From: an uncultured Candidatus Saccharibacteria bacterium
Lineage (GTDB): Bacteria; Patescibacteriota; Minisyncoccia; Phycocordibacterales; UBA12088
Length of the DNA stretch: 64,000 nt
Direction: 5' to 3'
Assembly: GCA_964562615.1 (NCBI GenBank)
Contig: CAZLUD010000001.1
Location: 38,937 to 102,936, forward strand
This document shows, piece after piece, positions 1 to 14,977 of this stretch (position 1 is the stretch's first letter; the number at the start of each line of letters is the position of its first letter). Under the pieces are notes generated by a model that was not told the DNA's origin, ran no database searches, and saw nothing but the letters and a program-made list of their open reading frames with translations. Made by a program: the position numbers and the translations under genes.

Positions 1-628
1 TGCATGACAGGACCTGGTCACCTATAACATGAACACGAAGCTCATATCTCTTAGGGATGTATTTTTGAAAAAGACAAGGGCTGCCGTTTAGAATATTTGG
101 ATCAATGGTACCTGCATTAATTTGGGAAGTGAGAATGCACTTATTCTCTAGGTGCACTCCGAGATTCCCTTGCTTAATTACAACGAGATCATTGCAAGCG
201 AAAGATAAGAGTTCTTCTTTACTGTTGGTAAAAATTGTATCAGGTGTCTTGAAGCCAATTGTTGTAGCAAGTTGTAACTGACCCAAGATGTTTTTGTTTC
301 TTAAAGTTGCCGATGGACGATTGATCCATCTAGCACCAGAGAATGCTGACTCCATCCACTCTTTAAGTGAGTCCCACGATGCTAAGAATAGTTTACGTTC
401 GTTTTCATCTTTGAACCAATCTTGTTTATAACTGATTCTAGGATGATGCACAAATACTGCGTTTGGCACTCGTTCAAAACGCTTACCAATAGCAACCCTT
501 GGAAAACATCCCAATTTCTGTGTATCAAAATTGAAATTGATACGTTCAACTGATGTGTGTAATTTGCAATTGGTCTCAATCACATCTGCATGAGTATTCT
601 CACTACGAGATAGCACCATGATAGACAT
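1..628 (-). CDS. ATP-grasp ligase of the MdnC/MvdD (graspetide/microviridin-type) family; N-terminal ~209 aa only, the gene runs off the window start
   Basis: Open minus-strand frame from ATG at 626-628 to position 1 with no stop, which is why the ORF track does not list it. AAGGAG lies 7 nt upstream of the ATG. Translation MSIMVLSRSENTHADVIETN...FNFDT...NKNILGQLQLATTIGFKTPDTIFTNSKEELLSF...LFQKYIPKRYELRVHVIGDQV matches motifs I recall from MdnC-type ATP-grasp enzymes (SRDNES..VI, FRFDTDRFP, KQLQLQVARQLGL.IP.T, FQENIPK..ELRI.IVGEQ). Confidence 0.6.
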   Translation of the reverse strand, partial: MSIMVLSRSENTHADVIETNCKLHTSVERINFNFDTQKLGCFPRVAIGKRFERVPNAVFVHHPRISYKQDWFKDENERKLFLASWDSLKEWMESAFSGARWINRPSATLRNKNILGQLQLATTIGFKTPDTIFTNSKEELLSFACNDLVVIKQGNLGVHLENKCILTSQINAGTIDPNILNGSPCLFQKYIPKRYELRVHVIGDQVLSC

Positions 629-645
629 TTTGACTCCTTTAAGGA

Positions 646-673
646 GTTGCCTACCTTGTTAAGGGTAGGCAAC
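646..673 (-). promoter_or_regulatory. Perfect 10 bp stem hairpin (gttgcctacc / ggtaggcaac) between the small upstream ORF and the ATP-grasp gene; candidate attenuator or partial terminator
   Basis: Inverted repeat read directly from the sequence. It lies 18 nt upstream of the ATP-grasp start codon and 12 nt downstream of the small ORF stop. Confidence 0.4.
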
Positions 674-684
674 CTACCTATTGG

Positions 685-777
685 TTACTCGTTGTTTTCG
701 TTACTTGAGTACTCGGTCGTTGGGCTTGCACCCTGAACGACAGGTGCTTCGGTGACGAAAAGGAACAGTAGACTCAT
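685..777 (-). CDS. Candidate graspetide precursor peptide, 30 aa (MSLLFLFVTEAPVVQGASPTTEYSSNENNE); a 34 aa form starts at the ATG at 787-789
   Basis: Hand-translated minus-strand ORF with stop TAA at 685-687 and GGAG 6 nt upstream of the ATG at 775-777. The C-terminus is rich in Thr/Ser and Glu/Asn, and the ORF sits immediately upstream of a graspetide-type ATP-grasp gene on the same strand. Below the 60 aa cutoff of the ORF track. Confidence 0.3.
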   Translation of the reverse strand: MSLLFLFVTEAPVVQGASPTTEYSSNENNE

Positions 778-1000
778 TTCAAACTCCATTGATTCGAGGT
801 TAAGCTTCCCAACACGTTTACACAACAGGGGTCATGCAAATGTTGGTCCAATTACAACCTAACATAATGCTTATTTATGTAAAGGATTAAGGAAACATTA
901 GGATTGCCAACAAACAATTATGCTATTGACTTTTCATAATAAAAACTTGTGATTGTTCAATCTCATCGGGGCATTTATTGATTTTGACCCATACAAAAAG

Positions 1001-1013
1001 TGGTGGACCATAG
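1001..1013 (-). repeat. 13 nt direct copy (12/13 matches) of the tRNA-Ala 3' end including the encoded CCA (tggtggaccatag versus tggtggaccctag at 1210-1222)
   Basis: Direct comparison of the two sequences; same orientation as the tRNA and about 200 bp downstream of its 3' end. Confidence 0.4.
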
Positions 1014-1209
1014 GTGACGCACACCTCAATACAAGCAATACCTGGTACTGCCCGTGGTGCGGCACAAAACAACTCCTAGAAGAAACTCCAAATTCAAGAA
1101 TTGCTACGCTCAGATAAGCGCTGTGACAAAAGCAGCAGCGTTTACTGCTGTTCAGTCCTTTGTAAGTAGACAAAAGAAAACCGCCAGACTGGTGACGGTT
1201 TATCAAATT

Positions 1210-1285
1210 TGGTGGACCCTAGCGGATTCGAACCGCTGACCTCCTGAGTGCAAAACAGGCGCTCTACCAACTGAGCTAAGGGCCC
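1210..1285 (-). tRNA. tRNA-Ala (anticodon UGC), CCA encoded
   Basis: Reverse complement GGGCCCTTAGCTCAGTTGGTAGAGCGCCTGTTTTGCACTCAGGAGGTCAGCGGTTCGAATCCGCTAGGGTCCACCA folds as a cloverleaf with anticodon loop TTTGCAC, G3:U70 in the acceptor stem (the Ala identity element) and T-loop GGTTCGAATCC. Confidence 0.9.
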
Positions 1286-1574
1286 GAGAAGTCGGCGCGA
1301 AAGTGCACCGACACGGATATATGAGCGAACTCACAAGAACAAAGTGCAAGGAATCACCTTCATAGAGACAAAACCCTCCAGCGACCCCTTGCGTAGATAC
1401 TGTAGCTGATTTTTGCCTAGAGTGCAATTGTGCAGGGGTAAAAAGGAAGACTATACTAGTAGAAGCAACCAGAAGGAGTGTCTCTTATGACTTGGTTTTT
1501 TGCGTTACTTCGCTGGCTATTTCCTGGGCTTTATAAGCCCATGTTCACCAAGAAGGAGTAGGCAGATTATTGTT

Positions 1575-1599
1575 AAGGCGTGCCCGCAGGGCACGCCTT
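1575..1599 (-). terminator. GC-rich hairpin (aaggcgtgccc..gggcacgcctt) just downstream of the ddl stop; putative terminator
   Basis: 11 bp perfect inverted repeat. No strong T-tract follows, so confidence is modest. Confidence 0.35.
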
Positions 1600-1604
1600 C
1601 TCAA

Positions 1605-2573
1605 CTATCTATGTAGCGCCAAGGTAAGTAAATGATCCAAAAAGTCTGGAAATTCGCACCCTACCGCTTTTAGCGCTTTTGGCACGAGGGATTCGCTGGT
1701 AAGTCCCGGGAGGGTATTAGTTTCTAGGTAAAAAATGCCTCGTTTTGAATGAATGATAAAATCGCTTCGTGAGTAATGTCTGAGTCCTAACGCTTCATGA
1801 ATGCTTTTGGCAAGACGTGATAATTCATAAGTTTCGTCTTTGGTGAAGTTGCCTGGACAACGCTCTTCACTATTACCTTTATATTTTGCATCATAGTCAA
1901 AAAAGCTACTTCCTGTCTTTGGGACTATTTCTATTGGCAACATGGCGTACAGTGGTTCAGAACGAAAATGTTCAAGCACCCCAACTGTTGCCTCCTTGCC
2001 TTGTATATATTCCTCAACTAACACCCTTGGGCTTATTTCAAACGCGGCGCGTACCGCATCTTCAAATGCAGCAAACGTACGTGGTAGTGACACCCCTACA
2101 CTAGAGCCGGAGTGTGCAGGCTTTACCACAAGTGGTGGTGCAAATGTTTTAAATGCACGAACCAAGTCTCCCGCGTGCGTACTTGAAACCACCAACTCAA
2201 CAGACCCTGGTGTTTTTAGCCCGGCTGTTTTTGCAATATCCTTTGCGCGTAGCTTATTCATTGCAAACGCACTCCCTAGTGCCTTTGAGCCAGTATAGCG
2301 GACCCCAACAGTATCCATAAGACGCTGTATCTGCCCATCCTCACCATATGTACCGTGAAGCGCATTAAATACTACATCTACTTGTCGTAGCACTGAGATT
2401 GGTTCTACAGGTCTTCCTTGATGGTGCCACACACCACTTGTATCAATAAAAATATCTTTTGCGTGATACTTTTCACTTGGGAGATGTTGTAGTACCTCGG
2501 CACCTGTACGCAAAGACACCTCATACTCATGTGAGGGTCCACCACGAACCACGCCTACTCGTACCCTATGCAT
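1605..2573 (-). CDS. ddl: D-alanine--D-alanine ligase
   Basis: ORF track 1605..2618. Start moved to the internal ATG giving MHRVRVGVVRGGPSHEYEVSL, the canonical Ddl N-terminus. ATP-grasp body with EEYIQGKEATVGVL and C-terminal LETNTLPGLT. Confidence 0.85.
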   Translation of the reverse strand: MHRVRVGVVRGGPSHEYEVSLRTGAEVLQHLPSEKYHAKDIFIDTSGVWHHQGRPVEPISVLRQVDVVFNALHGTYGEDGQIQRLMDTVGVRYTGSKALGSAFAMNKLRAKDIAKTAGLKTPGSVELVVSSTHAGDLVRAFKTFAPPLVVKPAHSGSSVGVSLPRTFAAFEDAVRAAFEISPRVLVEEYIQGKEATVGVLEHFRSEPLYAMLPIEIVPKTGSSFFDYDAKYKGNSEERCPGNFTKDETYELSRLAKSIHEALGLRHYSRSDFIIHSKRGIFYLETNTLPGLTSESLVPKALKAVGCEFPDFLDHLLTLALHR

Positions 2574-2607
2574 ACAATAATTATAGCACCAGGTGTCACT
2601 TCTCCTA

Positions 2608-3861
2608 TTACTCTCCAAATGATGCGCGTTGGCGCTTTTTTCTGTGCCACTCTATAGCAAATCGGTGTGCCTCGGCATTCGCTAAAATAATTGCTCGATC
2701 AATTGATGCTATTGCAGAGAGAGCAGGCGGCATGATGCCGATTATTTCTTTTGCTTTGTGATGCTCATCTTTTGTCACTGCAACAACAGGTATTTCATAG
2801 CCAAACGACGCAAGCACCTTTTGTGCCACACTCAGTTGTGCCTTAGCTCCATCTACAACCACCAATGTTGGGAGTCGCCACTCATGGTGAGTACATCGTC
2901 GCTCCAACACCTGCTTTAATGCACCCGTATCATCCGCACTTGTTATGCCGTTTATAATAAATTTTCTGTACTCAGTTTTTTGCACCTCCCCATTTTCAAC
3001 CACGGTCATAACTCCGACCATTTCCTTTCCTGAGGTGTGCGCAATGTCATACGCCTCAATGCGCACGGATGAGCCTGGCTCGTACAATGCTTCTCGCTTG
3101 ATAAGTGAAATGTCCCGTATGTGTTTAAGTGCGTATAGCTGGCGCTTTCGCTCCCCTGCTCGTTCAAACAACTCAGCATGTGCATACTCTTCCATCTCTT
3201 TGCTTAGTCTATCCAAGAGCTGTTTCTTCTTTCCTGAAAACAGAAGAATAATGTGTCGAATTGTTTTTGCATACTCACGCACACCATCGGCATCACTTTT
3301 TGGATATATACCTAATGATTGATAAAAGGCAATTTTGCCCTTTTCTGTCTTTGATGTAGCACTACCAACTGGATGCTTGGTATCAAAGAATGGAAAAATC
3401 TTTCTTATGAGTAGCAACGCTTCGGTTAGCTGATTTCCATACGGAAATGGTCCAAAAAGCTTTTTGATTTCTGATTTTTTAAATGCAGTAGACAAATCTT
3501 TTCCGCGTACCTTAAGCACTCGTGGAAATGCTTCATTGGTAATCACCACATAGTTATAGCTTTTATCATCCTTAAGGAGCGTGTTGTACTTTGGCTTATA
3601 GGTCTTAATTAAATTGGCTTCAAGGATAAGCGCTTCAAGCACTGAGTCTGTCGTACGATAATCTAGTATGTGTGCTTCTTCAACCATTTTTACAATGGTT
3701 GGACTTCTGCTTTCCACTAAATCCTTTGCGAAATAGCTTTTTGTTCGATCTTTTAGCGATGTTGCCTTACCTATGTACAACACCTTTTTTTGCTTATTAA
3801 GAAAAAAGTACACCCCTGGTGTTTGCGGTATATTTTTATTTTTTAGATATTCCTTTTGCAT
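2608..3861 (-). CDS. uvrC: Excinuclease ABC subunit C, short form (417 aa)
   Basis: N-terminal GIY-YIG motif (PGVYFFLNK...VLYIGKATSLKDRTKSYF) and a C-terminal RNase-H-like endonuclease region (LVVVDGAKAQL...). It lacks the long UvrB-interaction/HhH extension of canonical ~600 aa UvrC. Lies in an operon-like block with uvrA and uvrB. Confidence 0.8.
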   Translation of the reverse strand: MQKEYLKNKNIPQTPGVYFFLNKQKKVLYIGKATSLKDRTKSYFAKDLVESRSPTIVKMVEEAHILDYRTTDSVLEALILEANLIKTYKPKYNTLLKDDKSYNYVVITNEAFPRVLKVRGKDLSTAFKKSEIKKLFGPFPYGNQLTEALLLIRKIFPFFDTKHPVGSATSKTEKGKIAFYQSLGIYPKSDADGVREYAKTIRHIILLFSGKKKQLLDRLSKEMEEYAHAELFERAGERKRQLYALKHIRDISLIKREALYEPGSSVRIEAYDIAHTSGKEMVGVMTVVENGEVQKTEYRKFIINGITSADDTGALKQVLERRCTHHEWRLPTLVVVDGAKAQLSVAQKVLASFGYEIPVVAVTKDEHHKAKEIIGIMPPALSAIASIDRAIILANAEAHRFAIEWHRKKRQRASFGE

Positions 3862-3885
3862 ACGAGTAGTGAAAAGAAGTGCCCC

Positions 3886-4146
3886 CTAAGAGGGGGCGGG
3901 AACAAGCTTTACATAGAGCGCATCAAATTTTTGATGTAGATCAACGTGTGGGCAAGTTTTAAAGTATAGCGCTATTTGCTGTAAGCAAGGGATGCTAAGT
4001 TCTGCTTCTTGTAAGTGCACAAGCACCTGTTCATAGTACATTCTTGAGTCGGCACCTTCACTTGTAATGGACGCTTTATAGATAGCATCCAATATTGCTC
4101 CCACATGTTGGGAGGGTGTAAGTATATGCAACCCGTGACTTTGCAT
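3886..4146 (-). CDS. Hypothetical small protein between uvrC and uvrA
   Basis: ORF track 3886..4188. Start moved to MQSHGL because AAGGGGG lies 7 nt upstream. No recognisable motifs. Confidence 0.4.
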   Translation of the reverse strand: MQSHGLHILTPSQHVGAILDAIYKASITSEGADSRMYYEQVLVHLQEAELSIPCLQQIALYFKTCPHVDLHQKFDALYVKLVPAPS

Positions 4147-4187
4147 GACAAGCCCCCTTTTGACTTCCCTAAAAAATAATACTAGCA

Positions 4188-6770
4188 CTACTTTAAATAT
4201 CTTGCCAGATATGCGCCGGTGTGGCTTCCTTTGGTCTTTGCCACTTCTTCTGGGGTTCCCTTGGCTACCACCTTACCACCTCGCACTCCACCCTCTGGGC
4301 CAATATCAATAAGGTAGTCTGCGTTTTTAATAAGATCAAGATTGTGTTCAATAATAACCACCGAGTGACCTCTTCGCACTAGCTCTTGAAGGATATCAAT
4401 GAGTCGCTGTACGTCTTCATAATGAAGTCCCACAGTAGGCTCATCAAGAAGGTATATTGTTTTTGTTACACTAGATCTATATAGCTCTGATGCAATTTTT
4501 AACCGCTGCGCCTCGCCACCTGAGAGAGTGGTCGCACTTTGTCCAAGCTGAAGATATGAAAGACCGGTTTCTTCAAGAATACGTAGACGATCATATATCT
4601 GAGGGATATCTTCAAAAAAGACAATCGCCTCTTCAATGGTCATTTGCAGTATTTCGTGAATACTCTTCTTTTTATACTTAACCTCAAGTGTCTCCTTCAT
4701 AAACCTCTTTCCGTCGCACACATCGCAGGTTACATATACCGTAGGAAGAAAATGCATTTCAACCGCAATTAGTCCATTGCCTTGGCATGTTTCGCATCGC
4801 CCACCTTTTACATTGAAAGAAAATCTACTTGGCTTCCATCCACGTGCTCGTGCTTCATTTGTCTCCGCAAATAGCTCACGTATAAAGGTAAATGCGCCCG
4901 TATACGTAGCTGGGTTTGATCGAGGGGTACGCCCAATTGGCGATTGGTCAATAAGTACCGTACGCCCCAAGTATTCTGTACCGGTAAGACTCGCTATGTT
5001 GTATAGCTTTGTGGTTCTGTGACTTTTTTCAAGTCTTGCAAGAAGATTTCTATGCAGAATTTCGTACATAAATGATGACTTACCAGACCCCGAGACACCA
5101 GTGATGCATACCAGCTTTCCAAGCGGAACATCAACATTCATATTTTGGATATTAAATATTGATCCGCCACGGATTTTAAGCGAGCCTTTGTCTGTATCTC
5201 TCCTACTCTCTGGCACCGGTATTTTTTTGTCTCCTCGAAGGTACGCCACCGTGCTTGAGCCACTCACATCCTTCTTTGCCTTTAACAAGGTATCAACATA
5301 GTCGGCTACCATCACCTCACCACCGTGCCGTCCTGCCTTTGGTCCGATATCAATAAGGTAATCAGCAGATAGTATGGTGTCTTCATCGTGCTCTACTACT
5401 ATAATGGTGTTACCTAAGTCTCTAAGGTCTAGCAAGGTTTTGATAAGTCTGTCGTTATCACGTTGATGGAGTCCAATGGTAGGTTCATCAAGTACATAGA
5501 GTGCCCCGACAAGTCCACTACCAAGCTGGCTCGCTAGGCGTATGCGCTGTGCTTCGCCACCTGAGAGGGTGTTTGCTTTTCTATCGAGGGTAAGATACTC
5601 GATACCAACATTGATCATAAATTGCAGGCGATTGCTTATCTCTTTGAGTATCACACCAGCAATTTCTTTCTCTTTCTTTGTAAGTGAAAGAGTAGCAATA
5701 AACTTCATTGCATCTTCTATTGAAAGATTTACAAATTCAACGATGTTTTTACCCTCTCCTTTTTTATCTCCGCCCACATATACATTGAGCGCTTCTTTTC
5801 TTAGGCGGGCGCCATGACAAACATCACACACTTCGCTATTAAATATCCCCGCCATGCCAAGCCCATTACAGTTAGGACACGCGCCATACGGTGAGTTAAA
5901 AGAAAATAGTCGTGGCTCCACCTCCGGAAAGGGCGTACCGTCGGTAGGGCAAATAAACTTAGATGAGAGCATTTGCTCTGTGCCATCTGGAAATATGAGT
6001 TTAATAAGTCCATCGCTTTCATGCAGCGCTTGTTCGATTGCTTCTCCTAATCGCTCGTCTGAGCCTTTTTTATCTTCGGTAAATTCAGTAACAAAAATAT
6101 CATCCACCACCACATCAATGTGGTGACGCTTGTTTCTATCGAGCTCTATTTTGTCACGAAGGGATTTTGTTTCGCTGTCTATCACTACCTGCTCATACCC
6201 TTTACCCAAAAGGTCATAAAGCATTTGATAGTACTCGCCCTTGCGCCCCACAACAAGCGGTGCAAGTATGCGAAGTTTTAAATCATTAACCGCGACGCCC
6301 ATTACCTTCTTACTAGTCTTCTTTAGGTCAATTGCTTTAACTGCGTGTATAGCGACTGCCTTCATTTCTTCAATGGACATCTTAGTGATGCGTGCATCAC
6401 CCTCCATACAATACGCCTTTCCGACACGCGCATATAAAATACGAAGATAGTCGTATATTTCAGTAATGGTAGCTACAGTAGAGCGTGGGTTATTGGAGCG
6501 AGACTTTTGATCTATTGATATCGCAGGCGAGAGCCCCGTTATTTCTTCAACATCAGGCTTTTGCATCTGATTAAGAAATTGACGTGCATAGGAAGATAGC
6601 GACTCAACATAGCGTCGTTGTCCTTCTGCAAAAATGGTATCAAATGCAAGTGATGATTTTCCTGAGCCAGACATGCCTGTTATGGCAATCATTTTATTCC
6701 TTGGCATTTCTACCGTGATGTTTTTGAGATTATGTGTTTTTGCTCCTTTTACTATTATTTTGTCGTCCAT
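4188..6770 (-). CDS. uvrA: Excinuclease ABC subunit A
   Basis: N-terminus MDDKIIVKGAKTHNLKNITVEMP. Two ABC ATPase cassettes (GMSGSGKSSLAF and GVSGSGKSSF) with a Zn-finger CxxC insertion. Confidence 0.9.
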   Translation of the reverse strand: MDDKIIVKGAKTHNLKNITVEMPRNKMIAITGMSGSGKSSLAFDTIFAEGQRRYVESLSSYARQFLNQMQKPDVEEITGLSPAISIDQKSRSNNPRSTVATITEIYDYLRILYARVGKAYCMEGDARITKMSIEEMKAVAIHAVKAIDLKKTSKKVMGVAVNDLKLRILAPLVVGRKGEYYQMLYDLLGKGYEQVVIDSETKSLRDKIELDRNKRHHIDVVVDDIFVTEFTEDKKGSDERLGEAIEQALHESDGLIKLIFPDGTEQMLSSKFICPTDGTPFPEVEPRLFSFNSPYGACPNCNGLGMAGIFNSEVCDVCHGARLRKEALNVYVGGDKKGEGKNIVEFVNLSIEDAMKFIATLSLTKKEKEIAGVILKEISNRLQFMINVGIEYLTLDRKANTLSGGEAQRIRLASQLGSGLVGALYVLDEPTIGLHQRDNDRLIKTLLDLRDLGNTIIVVEHDEDTILSADYLIDIGPKAGRHGGEVMVADYVDTLLKAKKDVSGSSTVAYLRGDKKIPVPESRRDTDKGSLKIRGGSIFNIQNMNVDVPLGKLVCITGVSGSGKSSFMYEILHRNLLARLEKSHRTTKLYNIASLTGTEYLGRTVLIDQSPIGRTPRSNPATYTGAFTFIRELFAETNEARARGWKPSRFSFNVKGGRCETCQGNGLIAVEMHFLPTVYVTCDVCDGKRFMKETLEVKYKKKSIHEILQMTIEEAIVFFEDIPQIYDRLRILEETGLSYLQLGQSATTLSGGEAQRLKIASELYRSSVTKTIYLLDEPTVGLHYEDVQRLIDILQELVRRGHSVVIIEHNLDLIKNADYLIDIGPEGGVRGGKVVAKGTPEEVAKTKGSHTGAYLARYLK

Positions 6771-6818
6771 ATCAATTGATTGCTCAAAAGAGCACGTTAC
6801 GCGTGGTTCGAGTATACA

Positions 6819-8888
6819 CTATTTTCGCTTCCATCTCTTGCGCGCCTTTTTTGCTCCATCGTCTCCCATAAGCTCTGCAATTTCGTCTCGCAGAATGGCG
6901 GCAGTCTCAAAGTCTAGTAATTTTACCGCTTCTTCCATTTGTGTGCGTTTTTCAGCAATGGTTGCCTCTGGGTTGTTGTCGTATAGCGCTCGGTCTATTT
7001 CAAGTAATGCGCCGACCGCCTTTTTGTGTTCGGTTCGAAGGTGTTCTGTGATGTCATTAATAGATTTCTTGATACTGGTTGGTGTAATATTATGAGCAAC
7101 ATTGTATGCGTGTTGCACTTCACGTCTGCGACGTGTCTCGTTAATCGCTTTACTCATTGAGTCAGTCACCTCGTCCGCATACAGTATCACCTTACCTTCG
7201 ACATTTCGTGCAGCTCTTCCCATGGTTTGCATCAGGGATGTTTCTGAGCGCAAAAAGCCTTCTTTGTCAGCATCAAGTATCCCCACCAACGTTACTTCTG
7301 GTAGATCAAGACCCTCACGCAACAAGTTTACTCCTACCAGCACATCAAATGTCCCTTTTCTAAACTCAGTGAGTGTGGTGATTCGGTCAATGGTTTTTAC
7401 ATCGCTATGCAGATACTCTGCCTTAATATCTTTTTCTTTGAGAAATTCAGCAAAGTCTTCTGCCATTTTCTTGGTAAGAGTAGTCACAAGCACTCGTCCT
7501 CCCTTTTTTACTGCCGTACTTGTCTCGTGTATAAAATCTTTTACTTGTCCGCCGTACTTGCCTTTAGCAAGAATCGGACGAACCTCGATTTCGGGATCAA
7601 GTAGTCCTGTTGGGCGCACTATCTGCTCTGCAATGCCACCCATTGGCGGCACTGAATGTTCCTTTTCATAAACACCAGGAGTTGCCGAGGTATAGATTGT
7701 TTGCCCCACTCGAGCCTCAAATTCAGTAAAGGTAAGTGGTCGATTATCTTTTGCGCTTGGTAATCTAAATCCATGGTCAACCAGTGTCTGCTTTCGCGAT
7801 TGGTCACCAGCAAACATGGCCCTGAGTTGTGGCACCGTCACATGAGACTCATCAATAATGGTAATAAAGTCAGGTGAGCCGTCTTTATGATGTGGAAAAT
7901 AATCAATGAGCGTATACGGTGGATCACCAGCGTTTCTTCCATCAAAATGTCGTGAGTAGTTTTCTACCCCATTGCAATATCCAACCTCTCGTATCAGAGC
8001 AAGGTCATAGTTCGTTCTACGTTTGAGACGCTCTGCTTCTAGAATTTTTCCTTCTTTCTCAAACACCTTTAATTGCGCCGCAAGCTCAGCCTTAATATCT
8101 TTTGCAGCGCGCTCACGTTCTTCTTCAGGAGTTACGTAGTGCTTTGCAGGGAAAATAAAAATACTATCTACCTCTTTTACGAGCGCTCGAGAGACAGGGT
8201 CAATGATTGATATTGATGATATACCTGAACCCATAAATGCTACTCGATAAATAATCTTTTCATTGATGGGCATTATTTCAAGCACATTTCCTCTCCCTCT
8301 AAACTCCCCCGGCGAGAGGTCTGCGTTAGTACGGGTAAAATAAATCGCCACAAGCTTTCTTACCATTTCAGCCCTCGTTATTGTCACCCCTTTTGCCAAT
8401 TTGACATTAACCTTTTCATACTCACTTGGGGAGCCAAGTCCGTAAATACATGATACTGATGCCACCACAATGACATCGGTTCGAGTGAGGAGTGCTTGAG
8501 TTGCCGAGTGACGCAAGCGATCAATCTCTTCGTTTACCATTGCCTCCTTTTCAATATAGGTATCAGACGTGGGCATGTACGCCTCTGGTTGATAGTAATC
8601 GTAGTACGAAACAAAGTAGTGCACTGCCGCATCAGGAAAGAACTCTTTATATTCTTGCGCGAGCTGTGCTGCAAGTGTCTTGTTATGAGCAATAACAAGC
8701 GCAGGCTTGTTTACCGTTGCAATTACATTAGCGGCAGTAAATGTCTTGCCTGAACCAGTTACACCAATAAGGGTCTGGTGTCGAAGACCCTTTTCGTATC
8801 CTGATAGCAATGTCGAAATAGCCTTGGGTTGATCACCTGAGGGCTTATACTTTGATACCAGGGTAAATGGGTTGCGTGACTTTGCCAT
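6819..8888 (-). CDS. uvrB: Excinuclease ABC subunit B
   Basis: LIGVTGSGKTFT Walker A, YDYYQPEAY motif and C-terminal UVR domain (ILRDEIAELM). Confidence 0.95.
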   Translation of the reverse strand: MAKSRNPFTLVSKYKPSGDQPKAISTLLSGYEKGLRHQTLIGVTGSGKTFTAANVIATVNKPALVIAHNKTLAAQLAQEYKEFFPDAAVHYFVSYYDYYQPEAYMPTSDTYIEKEAMVNEEIDRLRHSATQALLTRTDVIVVASVSCIYGLGSPSEYEKVNVKLAKGVTITRAEMVRKLVAIYFTRTNADLSPGEFRGRGNVLEIMPINEKIIYRVAFMGSGISSISIIDPVSRALVKEVDSIFIFPAKHYVTPEEERERAAKDIKAELAAQLKVFEKEGKILEAERLKRRTNYDLALIREVGYCNGVENYSRHFDGRNAGDPPYTLIDYFPHHKDGSPDFITIIDESHVTVPQLRAMFAGDQSRKQTLVDHGFRLPSAKDNRPLTFTEFEARVGQTIYTSATPGVYEKEHSVPPMGGIAEQIVRPTGLLDPEIEVRPILAKGKYGGQVKDFIHETSTAVKKGGRVLVTTLTKKMAEDFAEFLKEKDIKAEYLHSDVKTIDRITTLTEFRKGTFDVLVGVNLLREGLDLPEVTLVGILDADKEGFLRSETSLMQTMGRAARNVEGKVILYADEVTDSMSKAINETRRRREVQHAYNVAHNITPTSIKKSINDITEHLRTEHKKAVGALLEIDRALYDNNPEATIAEKRTQMEEAVKLLDFETAAILRDEIAELMGDDGAKKARKRWKRK

Positions 8889-8910
8889 AGACTAAGACTA
8901 CACGATTTTC

Positions 8911-10101
8911 TTAAACTGACGAATCTAATTTTTCACGTTCAAGGCGAAGTAGCCGTTCAAGAAAAAATACATTCGACATACTACAGAGCACTCCGCCGAG
9001 CATCTCACCACTGCGTAGTAGATGCGCCACGTATGCTTTTGTATACCCCTTCAACCGTTCGCACTCGCCCGTCTCATCAAGTGGGCTCTCATCGTGTTTG
9101 TAGCGCTCGTTACAAAGATTGATTTTTTCACCCTGCGCGTTGTATATCATACCTGTCCTACCAAGCCGAGTTGGCTGCACACAATCAAATAAATCAATGC
9201 CTTTTTCTATACCGCTTATAACATCCTCCGGTTCTCCAATACCAAGCAAATGACGTGGTTTATCCTCAGGCAATATATCGGTCACCCATCCCACGGCGGT
9301 GTCCAAGTCCTCTTTTACATATGAGCCGCCAATGCCATACCCATCAAAATCCATATCTGCAAAAAATCGAGCACTTTCTTTCCTTAAATCCTCAAATCTT
9401 CCACCCTGCACAATACCAAAGAGTGCCTGCCGCTCTCCCATGGTGGTGTTTTGTCTATGTGCACTAAGAGAGCGCTTTGCCCAGCGGTGCGTTCTCTCCA
9501 TTGCTTCTAATTGATACGCATGATCTGCCGTAGCGCTAGTACATTCATCAAAAGCAAAAATTATGTCCGCGCCAATGTTGTGCTGTATTTCGATAGAACG
9601 CTCAGGAGTAAAGCGATGAAGAGTACCATCGATGTGTGAGGTAAAGGTCACCCCTTCATCATCTATTACTGCAAGCTTTCCGTGTTCAGAGAGTATATCA
9701 GGATCAAAAAACACTGGTCTTCTTTCATGCGCCACGCTGTCTATATCTGCTTTTGCCACCTTGGTAAGGTTCTTTCCAAACGCAGCACCAAGTGAGAATA
9801 CTTGAAATCCTCCCGAGTCAGTTGAGACTGGTCCATCCCAGTTCATAAATGAGTGAATCCCTCCCAATTTTTTTATTATTTCGTCTCCTACGGTGAGGTA
9901 TAGATGGTACGTATTTGCGATAACCGCATCAACACCTAGCGCTTTCCAATCATGTGCACCAATACCCTTTAACGTTGCCTTTGTGGCAACAGGAAGCAGT
10001 GTTGGTGTCTCGATAATACCGTGGGGGGTTATAAGCCTCCCCCGTCGCGCTTTACTATTTGTTTTCTTTTTAAGAATTTCAAATGTTATTGGCTTTTTCA
10101 T
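8911..10101 (-). CDS. tgt: Queuine tRNA-ribosyltransferase
   Basis: ARRGRLITPHGIIETPTLLPVATKATLKG, YHLYL and a zinc-site C-terminal region. Start set at MKKPITFEIL rather than the upstream in-frame ATG of the ORF track. Confidence 0.85.
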   Translation of the reverse strand: MKKPITFEILKKKTNSKARRGRLITPHGIIETPTLLPVATKATLKGIGAHDWKALGVDAVIANTYHLYLTVGDEIIKKLGGIHSFMNWDGPVSTDSGGFQVFSLGAAFGKNLTKVAKADIDSVAHERRPVFFDPDILSEHGKLAVIDDEGVTFTSHIDGTLHRFTPERSIEIQHNIGADIIFAFDECTSATADHAYQLEAMERTHRWAKRSLSAHRQNTTMGERQALFGIVQGGRFEDLRKESARFFADMDFDGYGIGGSYVKEDLDTAVGWVTDILPEDKPRHLLGIGEPEDVISGIEKGIDLFDCVQPTRLGRTGMIYNAQGEKINLCNERYKHDESPLDETGECERLKGYTKAYVAHLLRSGEMLGGVLCSMSNVFFLERLLRLEREKLDSSV

Positions 10102-10179
10102 AGATAGAAAAATACGCAACAATAACAAGCGCAACCGCGCAGGCGATTGCTCTTGTCATAGTACTAGGCATACTACGCA

Positions 10180-10542
10180 TTAGAGCGTGCAAGAAGTCTT
10201 CTCTGCAAGCGTTTCTAAGGTGACCACCCCGGTAAGGACTGAGCTGTCCTTAAATACCCACGTAGGATACCCTTCTACACCCGCATCTGTGCATACCGAC
10301 AACACTCCCTTTCCATCTGGGGTAGAGCATTCTACATACGGAAGAAGTGATGCTGATTTTCCAAAGAGAGCCTTTTGCTCTTTGCAATGAGGGCACCAAA
10401 AGGCACCATAAAATGTTGCCCCACTATCCGCAACACACTGTGCAAATGCGTCCTTTGGTCCTGGCATAAACATATTTGCCAAAAACAGACCAATGACAAT
10501 TATAAGTCCAATTACCCCCGTCCAAATTGTTTTTTTACTCAT
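10180..10542 (-). CDS. Membrane-anchored thioredoxin-like protein (VKOR-associated Trx-like type, WCPHC motif)
   Basis: N-terminal transmembrane helix. YGAFWCPHCKEQKALFG resembles the Trx-like domain fused to bacterial VKOR. Confidence 0.6.
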   Translation of the reverse strand: MSKKTIWTGVIGLIIVIGLFLANMFMPGPKDAFAQCVADSGATFYGAFWCPHCKEQKALFGKSASLLPYVECSTPDGKGVLSVCTDAGVEGYPTWVFKDSSVLTGVVTLETLAEKTSCTL

Positions 10543-10560
10543 AGTATGGTGACTATACCA

Positions 10561-11352
10561 CTATTTCCCACGAGGTGGGAGTGGTACAAAATAACTTGTA
10601 ATTGCAGCATATTTTCGATATGCAGGATCAGTCATAAACTTTCTTTCAAGCATTGGGCCAGTCACAAACAAAAGTATGTAGGTGATGGTGATTGGTGAAA
10701 TAAATACTAGATATGCCCACACCCCATCAAGCATACTTGCAGCCATACACGCCATACCCCACCATATCATTGACTCACCAAAATAATTTGGCCGTCTTGA
10801 ATATCTAAATAGCCCATGAGAAAGGATGCTTCCCTTATTTGCGGGGTCCTTGGTAAATCTATCAAGTTGATAATCTGCGAGCGCCTCAAAAAAGTAGCCA
10901 ATTGCAAAAAGACTAGTGCCGAGCATAAACACCCACGGCTCTGCCGCAGCAACGGATGACAATCCTAGTACTATTGGCAATGAGACAATGAGTATAATAA
11001 TCCCCTGGAGAACAAATACCTGAAACAGCGTGCGGAGATAAAAGTACGCAGTGCCGTGTAATAACCACTCCTCACGCCACGCGCAATATCTAAAATCTTC
11101 CCCTTTGCCGATTTTTCGTAAGTATATCCGTAATGACAAACGAATACCCCACGCAAACAAAAAGAGCATCAATAATTTTTGTGCAATAGATGCGTCAGGC
11201 GCCATGCCATAGAGTGCTGCGCCTATAATCATAAATACGATCCCGTACGCTATATCCATTATGCTATTGTCTTTCAGTAGTAGTGCTATTGCGTAAAGAC
11301 ACAATGCCACACTGGTTACTATTGCTATTGCAGTTATGAATGAGAATATCAT
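10561..11352 (-). CDS. DUF1295 / steroid 5-alpha-reductase-like polytopic membrane protein
   Basis: Multi-transmembrane protein with an SRRPNYFGE-type motif (LFRYSRRPNYFGESMIWWG). The start overlaps the stop of the upstream ABC ATPase gene in an ATGA arrangement. Confidence 0.6.
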   Translation of the reverse strand: MIFSFITAIAIVTSVALCLYAIALLLKDNSIMDIAYGIVFMIIGAALYGMAPDASIAQKLLMLFLFAWGIRLSLRIYLRKIGKGEDFRYCAWREEWLLHGTAYFYLRTLFQVFVLQGIIILIVSLPIVLGLSSVAAAEPWVFMLGTSLFAIGYFFEALADYQLDRFTKDPANKGSILSHGLFRYSRRPNYFGESMIWWGMACMAASMLDGVWAYLVFISPITITYILLFVTGPMLERKFMTDPAYRKYAAITSYFVPLPPRGK

Positions 11353-12047
11353 CGTTTTGATTTTAACACAGATGTTGGTGTACCATCATTAACTAATGCA
11401 CCATCAGATAGTTCAAGTACACGCTTTGCCATTCGCGCATACTCAAGTTCGTGCGTTACCATAATAATAGTCTGCCCAGCTTTATTTAGCTCTTCAAGAT
11501 AGGTGAGCAATAAGGTAGAAGTAGCGGTATCGAGATTTGCCGTAGGTTCATCTGCAAACAATACTAGTGGATTGTGGGCAATTGCTCTTGCGATTGATAC
11601 TCGTTGTTGCTCTCCTCCGGAGAGTTGGCTTGGTCGGTTATCAAGCCGCTCGTTAAGTCCCAATCGTGCTAGTACTTCATGCGCCCTTTTTCTTGAGGGA
11701 GTACTGGCAAAACCCTGCATAAGTAGTGGTACCATAACGTTTTCGGTCGCACTAAGCTCAGGAAGAAGCGCATAGTCTTGAAAGACATATCCTAGGTTAA
11801 ATAGCCTATATCGAGTACGTACCGCATTTGAAAACGTTGATGTGTCTTCACCATTTAGAAACAACTCACCACTTGTTGGAATATCAAGAAGTGATAACTG
11901 GTACATAAGTGTACTTTTACCTGCGCCTGACTTACCCACAATAGCGACAAACTCGCCTTCATTTATTTTGACATCAACACCTCGTAGCGCGTGTGTTTCG
12001 TGCCCTGCTTTGCCATATATTTTTTTTAATTGTTTTGCTTCTATCAT
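11349..12047 (-). CDS. ABC transporter ATP-binding protein (MacB/LolD-like)
   Basis: GKSGAGKSTL Walker A, LSGGEQQRVSIARA signature and a D-loop. Ends with a TGA stop that overlaps the next start codon. Confidence 0.85.
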   Translation of the reverse strand: MIEAKQLKKIYGKAGHETHALRGVDVKINEGEFVAIVGKSGAGKSTLMYQLSLLDIPTSGELFLNGEDTSTFSNAVRTRYRLFNLGYVFQDYALLPELSATENVMVPLLMQGFASTPSRKRAHEVLARLGLNERLDNRPSQLSGGEQQRVSIARAIAHNPLVLFADEPTANLDTATSTLLLTYLEELNKAGQTIIMVTHELEYARMAKRVLELSDGALVNDGTPTSVLKSKR

Positions 12048-12048
12048 G

Positions 12049-13329
12049 TTATCTACCTAAAATAGCATCGAGTGCATTCTTTCGTACAATAATTTTAGCA
12101 GGCATATACCCCGCAATGATAGTGGTTATCATAAGTATCGATGCTCGTATAAAGGTGCCATTTGCCGTAACTGACAACATGCCATCTGAAAATGGAAAAT
12201 CAATTGGGTTAGCATTAAAGTACGGCAAGATAAACACGTACAACATCGTGAGTCCTACCCCAATACCCACCACCGCATAAAAGAGCGACAACATAACATA
12301 CGACAACTCGATAGTCGCCCCTGTTACGCCAATTGCCTTCAAAATACCAATGTACTTTTGGCGAGTAATTGCGGTAATAAAGATGATAATAAAAATGGTA
12401 ATTGACGCCACAATAACTGAAATTGCACCGATGATATTTCCCAAAAATGAAAACGTATCTTTTATTTCATCAAGAAACTCTCCTACTGCTTCTTCGGTAG
12501 TTCGTACGAGTGCATAGTCACCTGCGCCTTGCGCTATGAGTGAACGTTTAACAAGATCGATATTTTCTCCTGGCAAAAGACGTACTGCAAACTCATCAAC
12601 ATTGTAATCACTTCTGTTAATGAGGCGACGAAGTTCGTTTGCTGGTAAAAATACACGTAAATCAGTTGCATCGGCTTTTGTTTTTACCACTCCTTTAAGA
12701 AGGTAATCCTTTGCTGCATTGCCAATAGTTATGCGCACCTTATCGCCAACATACACATCTGAAACTGTTTGTAGTCCTATTTCCGATGGAAAGTATCTAT
12801 CAAGTAAATTAGCTCCCATTACTATTTGATCATCATCAAAATCAGTAATAAATTCTCCTTCAACAAGGTAGTTTTCTATATTAGTTACCCTTGCCTCTTC
12901 ACGCACGGTAATACCAGCAATAGAAACACCAATCTTATCTGGAAGTACATTACTCTCTGCTACTGAGCGCTGAAAATTAGCCTCAAGCGAGCCTGATTCT
13001 ACAAGCCGCTCCGAGTACCCTGCTATCCCGGGCTCTCCTGCAAGAATTGCCCGTATCGCGGTGCTACGCTCTATATATTGCTTCTCAGGAAATTTTGAAA
13101 TCAATATATCTCCTGCATAGCGTTCGTTGTACCCTTTTAATGACCCGTCAATAAGCCCAACAAGGAGTCCTGTGACTACCACAAGATTAAGAAACGTGAG
13201 CATCATGACAAATACCACAAGCAGGGTTTGCCACAGACTTGTTCGCATGAGGTAGCGAACCGCGAGAAAAAATGCCACTTGTAGTGATGAAAGCATATTA
13301 CTCTTCAAATCGAGCCACAATGTCACCAT
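12049..13329 (-). CDS. ABC transporter permease, FtsX/MacB-type
   Basis: N-terminal transmembrane helix, a large periplasmic domain and three C-terminal transmembrane helices. The start may be the internal MLSSLQ. Confidence 0.75.
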   Translation of the reverse strand: MVTLWLDLKSNMLSSLQVAFFLAVRYLMRTSLWQTLLVVFVMMLTFLNLVVVTGLLVGLIDGSLKGYNERYAGDILISKFPEKQYIERSTAIRAILAGEPGIAGYSERLVESGSLEANFQRSVAESNVLPDKIGVSIAGITVREEARVTNIENYLVEGEFITDFDDDQIVMGANLLDRYFPSEIGLQTVSDVYVGDKVRITIGNAAKDYLLKGVVKTKADATDLRVFLPANELRRLINRSDYNVDEFAVRLLPGENIDLVKRSLIAQGAGDYALVRTTEEAVGEFLDEIKDTFSFLGNIIGAISVIVASITIFIIIFITAITRQKYIGILKAIGVTGATIELSYVMLSLFYAVVGIGVGLTMLYVFILPYFNANPIDFPFSDGMLSVTANGTFIRASILMITTIIAGYMPAKIIVRKNALDAILGR

Positions 13330-14977
13330 CGTTTAGTCCACTCACAATTTCAACCATTCCACCGTTTGTTTGTCTGCCAATGGTTACCGCGCGCTTTGTG
13401 TCTTTCGGCAAAGATGCGTCATGTACGTAGTAATCACCCCCTTCTTTTATCAAAAACCTTCTTGGAATTGAAAGTACATCCTCTGCCACCACCACCTGTG
13501 TACGTGCATTGGCAGTCATTCCAGAGTAAACACGATCATCGGGTATTTTAAGCTGTAGCGTAACGCCATACGCAGAAATACCATCAATTTTTTTCTCAGC
13601 AGGATCTATGTCGGTGATAACCGCCATAAATTCTTCTGTAGGGCCGTACGCATCAAGGGTGATAATTACTTCCATTCCTCGATTGAGTCCGACAATGTCT
13701 ATTTCTGATACATCAGCTTTAATTTCAAATGATGCATCTGATGCAATAGTTATCAGTGGGGTAAATGCTGAAACCAGTTCCCCTTCAGAAATTTCGATTG
13801 CCGTAACAGTTCCAGCGATTGGCGAAATGAGTGCATGCTTTGAAACCAATGACTCATACTTTTGTACTAGTGCTCGCTGTGCATCTACCCGCGCCTGCTG
13901 TTCACGAAGTTTCTCTGGTGTGGTACCCGCCTTTAGAAGTGCCACTTCTTCTTTGGCGACACTAATATTAGAAAGCGCGATATTTCTTTTCTCCTCTGCA
14001 ATAGAAAGTGCTGAAAGTTGTGCAACCACCTGCGTACGAGATGCAGAGACTGCAGCACGCCATGTGTCTATCTTTTCTTGACTGAGTGATGCACTGGTGG
14101 TCAGTGAGTTTACTAGCAGTGAAAGACTCTCTAGGTATAGTTTAATTTCGGTGAGATTGTTTCTCGTGAGCAAGCTGTACGCCTCGTAGTCTATATCACT
14201 TGAAATACTTGTTGATGCAGCGGCAAGTCCGCTTGTTTTAATAAATAATGAGAGATAACTAAATAATGTTGATTGGCTAGTTTCGGTAGGAGTAGAAAAT
14301 GCAGTGGTCATTTTGGAGCGAAGTCGTTCAGAATTTTCAGACCACCTAAGCAAAAGGTTTTCAAGCTCGATTCTTTTTTGCTCAATACCATTTGCGAGTT
14401 TGTAATCAACCGCGTCAAATTTTAATTGTGGATTTAGCCGTGGACTGTCAAATAGCTGATCAGTGCTATTTCTTACGGCATTTTCAGCAACCGTATACGC
14501 ATCGATATATTCATCAGATAGTGCTTGAAGCGCATCATTAAGGGACTGTTCGTATGAGGCAACCTTTTCAACTTTTACCTGTATTTCTTCTTCGCGTACA
14601 CCTTTTATAAGAGAATCAAGTGACGCAACCTCAGCAGAAAGAACCGCGCGTGCTTGCGCAACATCTGAGCGCGCATCCGCATCGCTCAGTGTAGCTATTA
14701 CCTGCCCCTTTCGTAGGGTATCACCAACATCAACAGAGAGTGTTTGTAATTTACCTTGAAGTTCAAAACCAAGAGAGACCTCATCGGCAGGTTCAACTGA
14801 ACCACTGAATCTCACCTCATTCTTTAGTGTGGATCGTTCAACAGTAAATACCTCGTCTGGTAATTCATTTGAAAAATAGCGATAGCTTGGATATGCAATC
14901 GCTACTACTACTAGTGAGCTACCAATAACAAACGTTATCAAATGTTGTGATATCCAATTTTTAAGTGCGACAATCAT
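13298..14977 (-). CDS. Periplasmic adaptor (HlyD/MacA-like membrane fusion protein)
   Basis: N-terminal transmembrane helix, biotin-lipoyl-like segments and a long coiled-coil region. Operon with the permease and ATPase. Start chosen at MIVALKNW. Confidence 0.65.
   Translation of the reverse strand: MIVALKNWISQHLITFVIGSSLVVVAIAYPSYRYFSNELPDEVFTVERSTLKNEVRFSGSVEPADEVSLGFELQGKLQTLSVDVGDTLRKGQVIATLSDADARSDVAQARAVLSAEVASLDSLIKGVREEEIQVKVEKVASYEQSLNDALQALSDEYIDAYTVAENAVRNSTDQLFDSPRLNPQLKFDAVDYKLANGIEQKRIELENLLLRWSENSERLRSKMTTAFSTPTETSQSTLFSYLSLFIKTSGLAAASTSISSDIDYEAYSLLTRNNLTEIKLYLESLSLLVNSLTTSASLSQEKIDTWRAAVSASRTQVVAQLSALSIAEEKRNIALSNISVAKEEVALLKAGTTPEKLREQQARVDAQRALVQKYESLVSKHALISPIAGTVTAIEISEGELVSAFTPLITIASDASFEIKADVSEIDIVGLNRGMEVIITLDAYGPTEEFMAVITDIDPAEKKIDGISAYGVTLQLKIPDDRVYSGMTANARTQVVVAEDVLSIPRRFLIKEGGDYYVHDASLPKDTKRAVTIGRQTNGGMVEIVSGLNDGDIVARFEE

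Follow-up and report, generated by a model that had tools for sequence, protein, structure and literature searches.

Organization of the Locus

The window analyzed here, a 64,000-nucleotide (nt) stretch of DNA from an uncultured Candidatus Saccharibacteria bacterium, carries at its left edge and on the minus strand part of a small gene cassette that was originally predicted to be a graspetide locus, that is, one for a ribosomally made peptide with post-translational modification (RiPP), crosslinked by an ATP-grasp ligase. The cassette comprises a short open reading frame (ORF) for a candidate precursor peptide, an intergenic hairpin, and the start of an ATP-grasp gene, and each of these items, together with the motifs and ribosome-binding site recorded for the enzyme, is present in the sequence. 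The ATP-grasp frame begins at the ATG at 626-628 and contains no stop through base 1 of the window. Its 209 codons represent codons 1-209 of 305 of a ligase of the graspetide-synthetase clade that is cut by the window edge (1..628, minus strand), as indicated by translation, hidden Markov model searches, a PDB profile search, and the predicted fold. The translated fragment contains all of the listed motifs, namely VLSRSEN..ADVIE, FNFDT, KNILGQLQLATTIGFKTPDTIFTNSKEELLSF, and FQKYIPKRYELRVHVIGDQV. Inspection of the sequence places the Shine-Dalgarno element of this gene, AAGGAG, at 634..639 on the minus strand, as had been described, but with a spacer of 5 nt to the ATG instead of the 7 nt that had been claimed. 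The stem-loop (646..673) and the precursor gene (685..777) lie upstream, both on the minus strand.

Relatives of the cassette were gathered by a scan of GTDB genomes, exact-protein look-ups, and a metagenome scan. One of them, L003, is a contig of another sample whose DNA is 99.0% identical to window 1-1042, and it was therefore used as the leftward extension, standing in for the DNA to the left of the window. The arrangement of small ORF, hairpin, and ATP-grasp gene is not due to chance, as it recurs in 17 unique loci. With a probability of roughly 0.75, the left edge of the window holds the first two-thirds of a compact (∼2 kilobase, kb), self-contained graspetide cassette of a Patescibacteria-specific family, in which the ATP-grasp enzyme would crosslink the peptide as proposed below and an alpha/beta-hydrolase would act as its partner.

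The ATP-Grasp Enzyme

The full-length relative encoded by L003, P0001, is a 305 amino acid (aa) protein; aligned with the window fragment, it shows 4 substitutions in 209 residues (98% identity). Among NCBIfam models, the fragment matches four RiPP ATP-grasp maturase models with expect values (E) of 5.6e-16 to 1.1e-10, and RimK with 5e-4. P0001 matches TIGR04187 (3e-40), MvdC (3e-39), MvdD (1e-35), and the grasp-with-spasm model (2e-28), and the non-graspetide ligases RimK and LysX at 2e-8 and 0.03, respectively. Set against the curated cutoffs, its bit scores are 135 versus 425 for MvdC (TIGR04185), 124 versus 475 for MvdD (TIGR04184), 138 versus 350 for SAV_5884 (TIGR04187), 100 versus 230 for grasp-with-spasm (TIGR04192), and 34 versus 143 for RimK. 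Because these scores fall so far short, P0001 is regarded as a relative of the MvdC and MvdD families and not as a member of them, and the predicted MdnC/MvdD-type ligase stands as a statement about the clade but not as one about membership in the MvdC/MvdD equivalog families. In the N-terminal region, the NCBIfam alignments of P0001 begin at residues 72-94 and leave the first 70-90 residues unaligned; the CdnC profile alignment spans residues 3-304, and the fold alignments to MdnC comprise ∼323 columns for the 305-residue query.

A profile built from 30 family members (A1), in which 50 columns are invariant, recovered only six chains when compared with all PDB sequences: CdnC, MdnB, AMdnB, MdnC, PruB, and PsnB, all of which are characterized graspetide synthetases. 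The best of these matches, to CdnC (1.6e-40, residues 3-304), includes the DWR and ExN motifs, and no RimK, LysX, or GshB chain was found under E 0.01. The AlphaFold (AF2) model of the enzyme, with a predicted local distance difference test (pLDDT) of 86.6 and a predicted template modeling score (pTM) of 0.86, yields the same grouping. Ranks 1-32 of its Foldseek matches are all graspetide synthetases, with MdnC at a template modeling (TM) score of 0.81 and E 1.7e-22, and the following ranks belong to ArgX/LysX and RimK (E 6e-15 and below). The NCBIfam, PDB profile, and Foldseek comparisons thus group the enzyme, as anticipated, with the MdnC/MvdD-type RiPP macrocyclases and not with RimK or glutathione-synthetase-type ligases, and the ATP-grasp protein is a graspetide-type macrocyclase homolog.

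Database searches delimit the family as a discrete set of ∼305 aa proteins. A profile search returns ∼90 sequence clusters at 554-292 bits, followed by a gap to ATP-grasps that carry PF21068 at 204 bits or less. Members appear in their source databases as "hypothetical protein [Patescibacteria group]" or under generic ATP-grasp labels, including a JGI label of "glutathione synthase/RimK-type ligase-like" on some, and all named members are from Patescibacteria.

The Precursor Peptide and the Intergenic Hairpin

Three starts are possible for the small ORF that ends at the TAA at 685-687: ATG 775-777 (30 aa), ATG 787-789 (34 aa), and TTG 823-825 (46 aa). Homologs, together with a GGAG ribosome-binding site seen by inspection at 784..787 on the minus strand, 6 nt ahead of the ATG, set the start at 775-777. 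Of the two ATG starts that had been offered, the inner one is therefore retained and the one at 787-789 is not. The resulting 30 aa peptide, MSLLFLFVTEAPVVQGASPTTEYSSNENNE, supported by the ORF list, homologs, and the codon-position pattern, consists of a leader, MSLLFLFVTEAPVVQGA, and a core, SPTTEYSSNENNE. A same-strand small ORF ending in SPT[TA]EY[ST][ST]xExxE precedes the ATP-grasp gene in 25 loci with 16 unique core DNAs, to which locus L038 adds one, for 17 unique loci with a precursor when the window and L003 are counted once. The distance between precursor and ATP-grasp gene is 7-491 nt, mostly 54-87 nt, and the enzymes of these loci share only 37-66% identity with that of the window.

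Pairs of core sequences (13 codons) differ on average by 0.19 at the first codon position, 0.12 at the second, and 0.63 at the third. Residues S1, P2, T3, E5, Y6, and S7 are invariant with all of their synonymous codons in use, Ser7 being encoded by both TCN and AGC. This third-position bias and synonymous codon freedom indicate a translated peptide under purifying selection. The hydroxyl donors S1, T3, and S7 and the Glu acceptors E5, E10, and E13 are invariant or nearly so among 14-16 unique sequences. The ExxE spacing is constant, the distance from Tyr to Glu shifts by one residue in L018 and L027, and Glu is the C-terminal residue in 13 of 14 thirteen-residue cores, with L011 and L027 ending otherwise. 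The 30 aa ORF is hence a real gene, conserved and co-oriented with the ATP-grasp gene, and the expectation that its Thr, Ser, and Glu residues would be kept in relatives is borne out beside enzymes of as little as 37% identity.

The leaders fall into two classes in the alignment (A3): a short class of 30 aa precursors with M[VI]LLRxFVT[DE]xP..., which includes the window, and a long class of 49-63 aa precursors that keeps [LF]LRxhVE..P and adds LG....WxWxP. Leader length accordingly ranges from 17 to ∼50 residues around a core that stays fixed. The microviridin motif PFFARFL, noted as missing from the window peptide, is absent from all 18 aligned precursors, as is TxKYPSDx[DE][DE], and the core lacks Lys. 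The separation from the microviridin group that had been drawn from this is upheld, yet the leader has a conserved element of its own, [LF]LRxF[VL], common to both classes, and the long class also has WxWxP. An upstream 70-75 aa ORF (L040, 2607-2834) beside an out-group ATP-grasp, P0096 (204 bits), shares the WNWKP leader element of the long-class precursors but has a different Thr/Asp/Glu-rich tail, and the WxWxP leader element would therefore be older than the family with the SPTTEY core.

The hairpin at 646-673 consists of a perfect 10 bp stem (GTTGCCTACC/GGTAGGCAAC) with an 8 nt loop and is separated from the ATP-grasp ATG by 17 nt. Folding of its 81 nt context gives −22.3 kcal/mol (z = −3.5), and z reaches −6.7 when the 56 nt spacer is folded by itself. 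Of 16 unique loci, 14 have a strong GC-rich stem of 10-14 bp after the precursor stop, several with a U-run, and the sequences of these stems are unrelated. The hairpin is thus conserved as structure and position and not as sequence. It probably serves as a partial terminator or as a transcript-stabilizing element that sets the stoichiometry of precursor and enzyme, and the retention of position and structure without sequence conservation would support the partial terminator that had been suggested. A sigma-70 promoter scan of window 1-1700 found no minus-strand promoter upstream of the precursor.

A Predicted Alpha/Beta-Hydrolase Beyond the Window Edge

The original prediction placed the C-terminus of the ligase, together with any tailoring or export genes, beyond the window. 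The C-terminus is found there in L003, but in place of a tailoring or export set there is a single convergent esterase-like hydrolase. A protein of 200-245 aa lies directly downstream of the ATP-grasp gene in every SPTTEY locus with enough sequence, is encoded convergently, and often overlaps the ATP-grasp 3′ end. The module contains only three conserved genes, with no fourth gene common to the loci examined. The L003 version is a 200 aa esterase-like protein with an intact triad. Pfam provides weak Abhydrolase_1 and Abhydrolase_6 matches with scores at or below threshold, and an oxyanion-loop Gly, HSxG, [DE]PS, and a C-terminal His are invariant across 22 unique hydrolases. The AF2 model (pLDDT 90.9) is a minimal alpha/beta-hydrolase with a small cap; it has 92 Foldseek matches in the PDB at E ≤ 1e-3, of which the top 50 are all alpha/beta-hydrolases and include no peptidases, and its nearest folds are cinnamoyl/feruloyl esterases, YqiA, and a thermophilic lipase. 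According to the model and alignment, the putative acid [DE]PS is placed after the strand that follows the nucleophile strand, and not after the canonical later strand. The partner protein is, on this modeling, an alpha/beta-hydrolase-fold serine hydrolase with a predicted Ser-His-Asp/Glu triad. For a fold of this kind, relatives are strikingly scarce: a full HMMER scan of 1.84 billion representative proteins yielded no more than 99 (27 of them at 1e-30), which fall into the same two length classes and point to a tie between the hydrolase and the module.

The presence of the hydrolase follows the precursor core. Both loci with a candidate precursor of a different core, L025 and L037, are without a hydrolase. 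In L025, where the small ORF lies at ∼200-370 and the ATP-grasp gene at 386-1438, the long-class leader is kept (SLLRPLVRQVPQDVLGAEGNWNWTPEVEV) and the core is replaced by ...TGYCPGSGSEGGED, and the sole upstream small ORF of L037 has an unrelated sequence, MAQLGGDFIASLLSRSAQKMSAGTNSELKSGYFVESGAVEG. Because L025 keeps the leader, changes the core, and has no hydrolase, these loci suggest an association of the hydrolase with the SPTTEY core and not with leader class. The hydrolase ORF is also found intact as an orphan in decayed loci from which the precursor is missing. In L019/L020 the ATP-grasp gene (2995-3744) is 5′-truncated ahead of the hydrolase at 3728-4348, and in L034/L035 it is frameshifted into three frames (2989-3491), with the hydrolase at 3448-4182.

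Proposed Mechanism and Alternative Explanations

In the enzymology of MdnC, CdnC, and PsnB, leader binding is followed by ATP-dependent phosphorylation of Asp/Glu carboxylates and attack by Ser/Thr hydroxyls, which results in rings. By analogy, the N-terminal domain of the ATP-grasp enzyme would bind the leader element [LF]LRxF[VL] and the enzyme would use ATP to phosphorylate Glu side-chain carboxylates, upon which Ser/Thr hydroxyls would attack to form up to three omega-ester (macrolactone) rings in the core. Only ester rings would be possible, because the core lacks Lys. The hairpin past the precursor stop would hold the precursor transcript above that of the enzyme. The least certain step is the role of the hydrolase, which most likely would act on the ester bonds of the product, either in self-protection or in turnover. 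This role is favored because the hydrolase has an esterase-like fold, depends on core type rather than on leader class, is transcribed separately and convergently from its own promoter, and persists as an orphan in the manner of orphan immunity genes. Removal of the leader by the hydrolase at the invariant S-P-T junction is nearly as likely, and as a third option the hydrolase may be the target that the peptide inhibits.

Several points weigh against the interpretation of the locus as a graspetide cassette with a hydrolase partner. The score of P0001 is far under the curated cutoffs of all NCBIfam graspetide models, neither the 209 aa fragment nor full-length P0001 has a Pfam match at E ≤ 1-10, and PF21068, the MvdD pre-ATP-grasp domain, has no match in P0001. 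The crosslinked product is a prediction, and its ring number and topology are guesses. The hydrolase was read from L003, a 99%-identical contig of another sample, and so lies outside the window itself, and because it is convergently transcribed, co-expression with the graspetide genes is not implied. Identities of ATP-grasp and hydrolase covary over 18 loci (r = 0.75, Mantel 0/2000), which speaks for a tie of the hydrolase to the module, but a mirror-tree correlation is expected for any two genes with a common genome history. The association of core and hydrolase draws on two counter-examples only, of which the L037 small ORF is unverified, and likeness of fold cannot tell an esterase from a peptidase. 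Finally, the conserved genes of the module include neither an exporter nor a canonical leader protease.

Among characterized graspetides, the microviridins and marinostatin inhibit Ser-His-Asp hydrolases by mimicking their substrates. A reading with the same ring chemistry but a different logic would accordingly make the crosslinked peptide a dedicated inhibitor or regulator of the co-encoded hydrolase, the two forming an addiction-like pair on a selfish cassette in which the hydrolase does not process the peptide. The strict co-occurrence of the hydrolase with the core type, the tiny size of a hydrolase family nearly confined to the module context, the mobility of the module, and the convergent genes with separate promoters would all agree with such a pair, and serine proteases found in some graspetide clusters have been noted as possible self-resistance copies (Carter et al., 2026; PMC13097080). 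A toxin that needs an antidote would, however, be lethal in the decayed loci, where the hydrolase is intact although ATP-grasp and precursor have decayed; moreover, the hydrolase has no known toxicity or target, and its closest folds are benign carboxyl-esterases. An inhibitor pair is for these reasons considered unlikely.

The remaining alternatives concern the enzyme and the small ORF and are less probable still. The ATP-grasp could be a RimK-, LysX-, or PGM1-like ligase that adds an amino acid or amine to the C-terminal Glu or to a Glu side chain, so that the peptide would serve as a carrier or become a product with an extended tail, and not a macrolactone. ATP-grasp enzymes indeed modify LysW-type carriers and ribosomal protein S6 at a C-terminal Glu, and the nearly universal C-terminal Glu of the cores, the place of ArgX, LysX, and RimK as the next fold matches, and the JGI label would be in keeping with this. 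The sequence profiles are nevertheless ∼30 orders of magnitude apart (1e-28 to 1e-40 for graspetide models against the RimK and LysX values given above), the PDB profile search returned none of the RimK-type chains, and the 30 aa peptide has no Cys or His and no Zn-finger, LysW-like, or other globular domain. Chemistry at the C-terminus also leaves the invariant internal Ser, Thr, and Glu unaccounted for, and the L011 and L027 cores are without the terminal Glu, all of which makes a ligase of this kind very unlikely. Least plausible of all is that the small ORF is a regulatory leader peptide (an upstream ORF) that forms an attenuator with the hairpin to control the ATP-grasp gene and is not a substrate. 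A strong hairpin, sometimes with a U-run, within 11 nt of a short ORF directly upstream of an enzyme gene is what such an attenuator would present; against it stand purifying selection at the amino-acid level over 13 residues, including Pro, Tyr, and Glu, with synonymous change free, a leader of variable length beside a fixed core, the lack of any alternative anti-terminator pairing overlapping the ORF, and a partner enzyme from a peptide-modifying clade. Origins in a defense system or a phage were also considered and rejected, as four family proteins had no PADLOC match at E ≤ 0.01 and PHROGs gave only a generic RimK-annotated family (2e-18).

Comparison With Known Graspetide Systems

The cassette resembles microviridin-type systems (MdnA with MdnB/MdnC, and chryseoviridin CdnA/CdnC) in having a short precursor directly upstream of an ATP-grasp of the same clade, in a short hydrophobic leader recognition element that would bind the enzyme, and in a core rich in Thr/Ser and acidic residues around a central aromatic one. 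Unlike these systems, its enzyme has only 19-25% identity to the known synthetases, scores under the MvdC/MvdD cutoffs, and lacks the Pfam pre-ATP-grasp match; the leader has [LF]LRxF[VL] instead of PFFARFL; and the core, SPTTEYSSxExxE, has Glu as its sole acid and no Lys, so that no amide ring is expected. The module further differs in its single ATP-grasp, its 30 aa precursor, its obligate esterase-like partner, and the absence of a GNAT enzyme or an ATP-binding cassette (ABC) transporter. With plesiocin/PsnB and the omega-ester groups (RODEO groups 2-43) it shares the fold and clade of the enzyme, PsnB and PruB being among the top matches, as well as the presence of ester-forming residues only.

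A RiPP locus had been called unexpected in a streamlined genome, a view that does not hold, as graspetide clusters of the candidate phyla radiation (CPR) were predicted earlier in two ATP-grasp branches (Makarova et al., 2022; PMC8939145). Every locus of these branches is said to have a gene for a secreted "cluster 23" protein, frequently accompanied by SPASM or methyltransferase genes. The core signature of branch 1 is TxxxTx(6-10)Dx(1-4)D, and the precursors of branch 2 were mostly not found, with "possibly alpha/beta hydrolase" genes co-expressed (PMC8939145). The present family has in common with these branches its CPR hosts and an ATP-grasp with small, often unannotated precursors, with branch 2 also being comparable in its possible alpha/beta-hydrolases, and is set apart by description in having three conserved genes only and the core SPTTEYSSxExxE. 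All NCBI members found of the SPTTEY family have accessions later than that study. More recently, 43 RODEO groups were described, of which groups 27 and 42 derive partly from candidate phyla (Carter et al., 2026; PMC13097080). Identity with group 27 was rejected on its representative precursors (e.g., ...SGGARITATKCTVLANKFADGDTGEC), which are unlike the SPTTEY family, and identity with group 42 on precursor sequence and a co-occurring DUF6624 that do not match; a conserved esterase-like partner is not reported for the groups of that work. The core motif was not found in the accessible portions of the supplements of PMC8939145 and PMC13097080, an absence that is not proof, and the accessions of the family and the term "Patescibacteri" were not found in those of PMC13097080. 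No published description of an SPTTEY graspetide family was found.

The hydrolase resembles cap-bearing carboxyl-esterases (the Lactobacillus cinnamoyl/feruloyl type LJ0536, YqiA, and the Thermoanaerobacter lipase TTL) in fold (TM 0.60-0.75, E 2e-8 to 1e-6), in its A/G-H-S-x-G nucleophile elbow, and in its C-terminal catalytic His, but differs in its low identity (13-18%), in the position of the acid [DE]PS, in having only ∼100 detectable relatives, and in its RiPP-module context. Sequence comparison leads to the conclusion that the family would be an undescribed graspetide group of an already known class, and enzyme clade and conserved precursor together support the predicted reading as a RiPP locus. 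What distinguishes the family is its very short precursor, its all-Glu SPTTEYSSxExxE core, and its obligate esterase-like partner.

A different CPR graspetide-like locus was found in Ca. Zambryskibacteria (L002, PFXE01000036.1; 3935-4513, 4726-5682, 5684-5857, 5937-6428). Its ATP-grasp is far closer to TIGR04187 (2e-71); a small alpha/beta-hydrolase of its own lies ahead of this enzyme, and a 57 aa ORF ending in ...TTSQWISNPNSKEWDYDQD and a 163 aa ORF come after it. This locus may belong to the DUF6624-associated group 42.

Significance

Secondary metabolism is nearly absent from the tiny genomes of Patescibacteria, and any conserved peptide module in such genomes therefore probably serves an episymbiotic or competitive lifestyle, whose molecular basis is understood only in small part. 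With a single macrocyclase and a single hydrolase besides the 30 aa precursor, the family's ∼2 kb module is compact enough for direct synthesis and reconstitution. A whole graspetide clade, with its ∼90 "hypothetical" clusters, is missed by RiPP miners and by Pfam and NCBIfam thresholds. Whether the core-tracking hydrolase were to open rings, remove the leader, or be the target of an inhibitor, each would extend graspetide enzymology. Although the kind of locus will not surprise a RiPP specialist, it is a clean, compact, and previously unannotated CPR-specific system.

Probable Cassette Mobility and Genomic Neighborhoods

The neighborhood of the module is different in every genome. In the window, the probable upstream boundary of the cassette is one direct-repeat copy, at least 30 nt long (CGTAGCAATTCTTGAATTTGGAGTTTCTTC; 1079..1108, minus strand), which blastn matches at 100% over 30 nt to L003 2015-2044, a copy that lies past the hydrolase and off the window. 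In six loci, the module lies between direct repeats that consist of local host sequence and are unrelated from locus to locus. These loci are the window/L003 pair, L005 (37 nt, 92%; 5697-5733/7577-7613), L016 (98 nt, 86%; 2498-2595/4555-4652), L027 (33 nt, 85%; 2096-2128/4722-4754), L028 (192 nt, 80%; 44-232/2398-2589), and L038 (53 nt, 92%; 3636-3688/5787-5839). Their geometry is constant: 97-230 nt lie between the end of the upstream copy and the precursor, and the downstream copy begins 53-102 nt past the hydrolase ATG. In L016 the repeat takes in the promoter of a TrmB-like gene together with its first 24 codons; the gene is whole past the module, and ahead of the module it is present in truncated form. 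No flanking repeat was found in 10 of the 16 loci tested, and the cassette junctions have no conserved terminal motif, with no recombinase found. The repeats suggest that the ∼2 kb module is an insertion cassette with long target duplications, and they hint at movement of small cassettes between CPR genomes. A bolder reading, in which the module is a selfish mobile cassette with long (30-192 nt) target duplications that carries a crosslinked peptide and the serine hydrolase it inhibits or is destroyed by, a RiPP-based inhibition or immunity pair that spreads among ultra-small episymbionts and in some lineages acts as a peptide signal to neighboring 7TM sensor kinases, is speculative and, on present evidence, rather improbable.

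Four independent loci, all of the short-leader class, encode HisKA_7TM-type membrane sensor kinases at 0-4 kb from the module: L004 (7527-9143, minus strand), L001 (6682-7881 and 9920-11506, both plus), L005 (2386-3969, plus), and L018 (5404-6876, minus). The L004 kinase gene immediately precedes that of the hydrolase and runs in the same direction. No such kinase was found in the window, nor, within 3 kb, in the remaining loci, and the kinase was rejected as a defining part of the module, being present in only four independent loci; a peptide-signal/receptor link between the two is possible from their placement.

In one genome (L007/L008; 3615-4601, 9712-10236, 10287-11414), a second RiPP-like neighborhood lies within 2-5 kb of the module. 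Besides a 328 aa MvdD-type ATP-grasp with PF21068, it encodes a radical-SAM/SPASM enzyme, an S41 peptidase, a protein with a transglutaminase core, and several small ORFs. In L037, which holds the most divergent member (37% identity), the ATP-grasp gene (4001-4954) lies between L2 and S19 in the S10 ribosomal-protein operon; a Y1 transposase of the IS200/IS605 type comes next (5021-5701), and the hydrolase is absent.

Upstream of the precursor, the window carries a tRNA-Ala(UGC) gene with two terminator-like hairpins (1210-1285, minus strand). An exact look-up of the UvrC-like protein described below led to a single contig, L041 (43 kb, from another sample), which matches window 1210-13861 at 100% and stops at the very last base of the tRNA-Ala, its 3′ end, and so provides no leftward extension. 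The assembly graph therefore branches there; this fits with the DNA beyond the tRNA-Ala, cassette included, being strain-variable. The neighbors of the tRNA-Ala are housekeeping genes (1605-2618 and 2608-3861, both minus strand) that overlap by 11 nt. One encodes a D-Ala-D-Ala ligase, an ATP-grasp that has no connection with the graspetide locus, and the other a short (417 aa) UvrC-like GIY-YIG protein, with UvrA and UvrB farther along (Pfam labels from L041). The GC content of the window is 43.6%.

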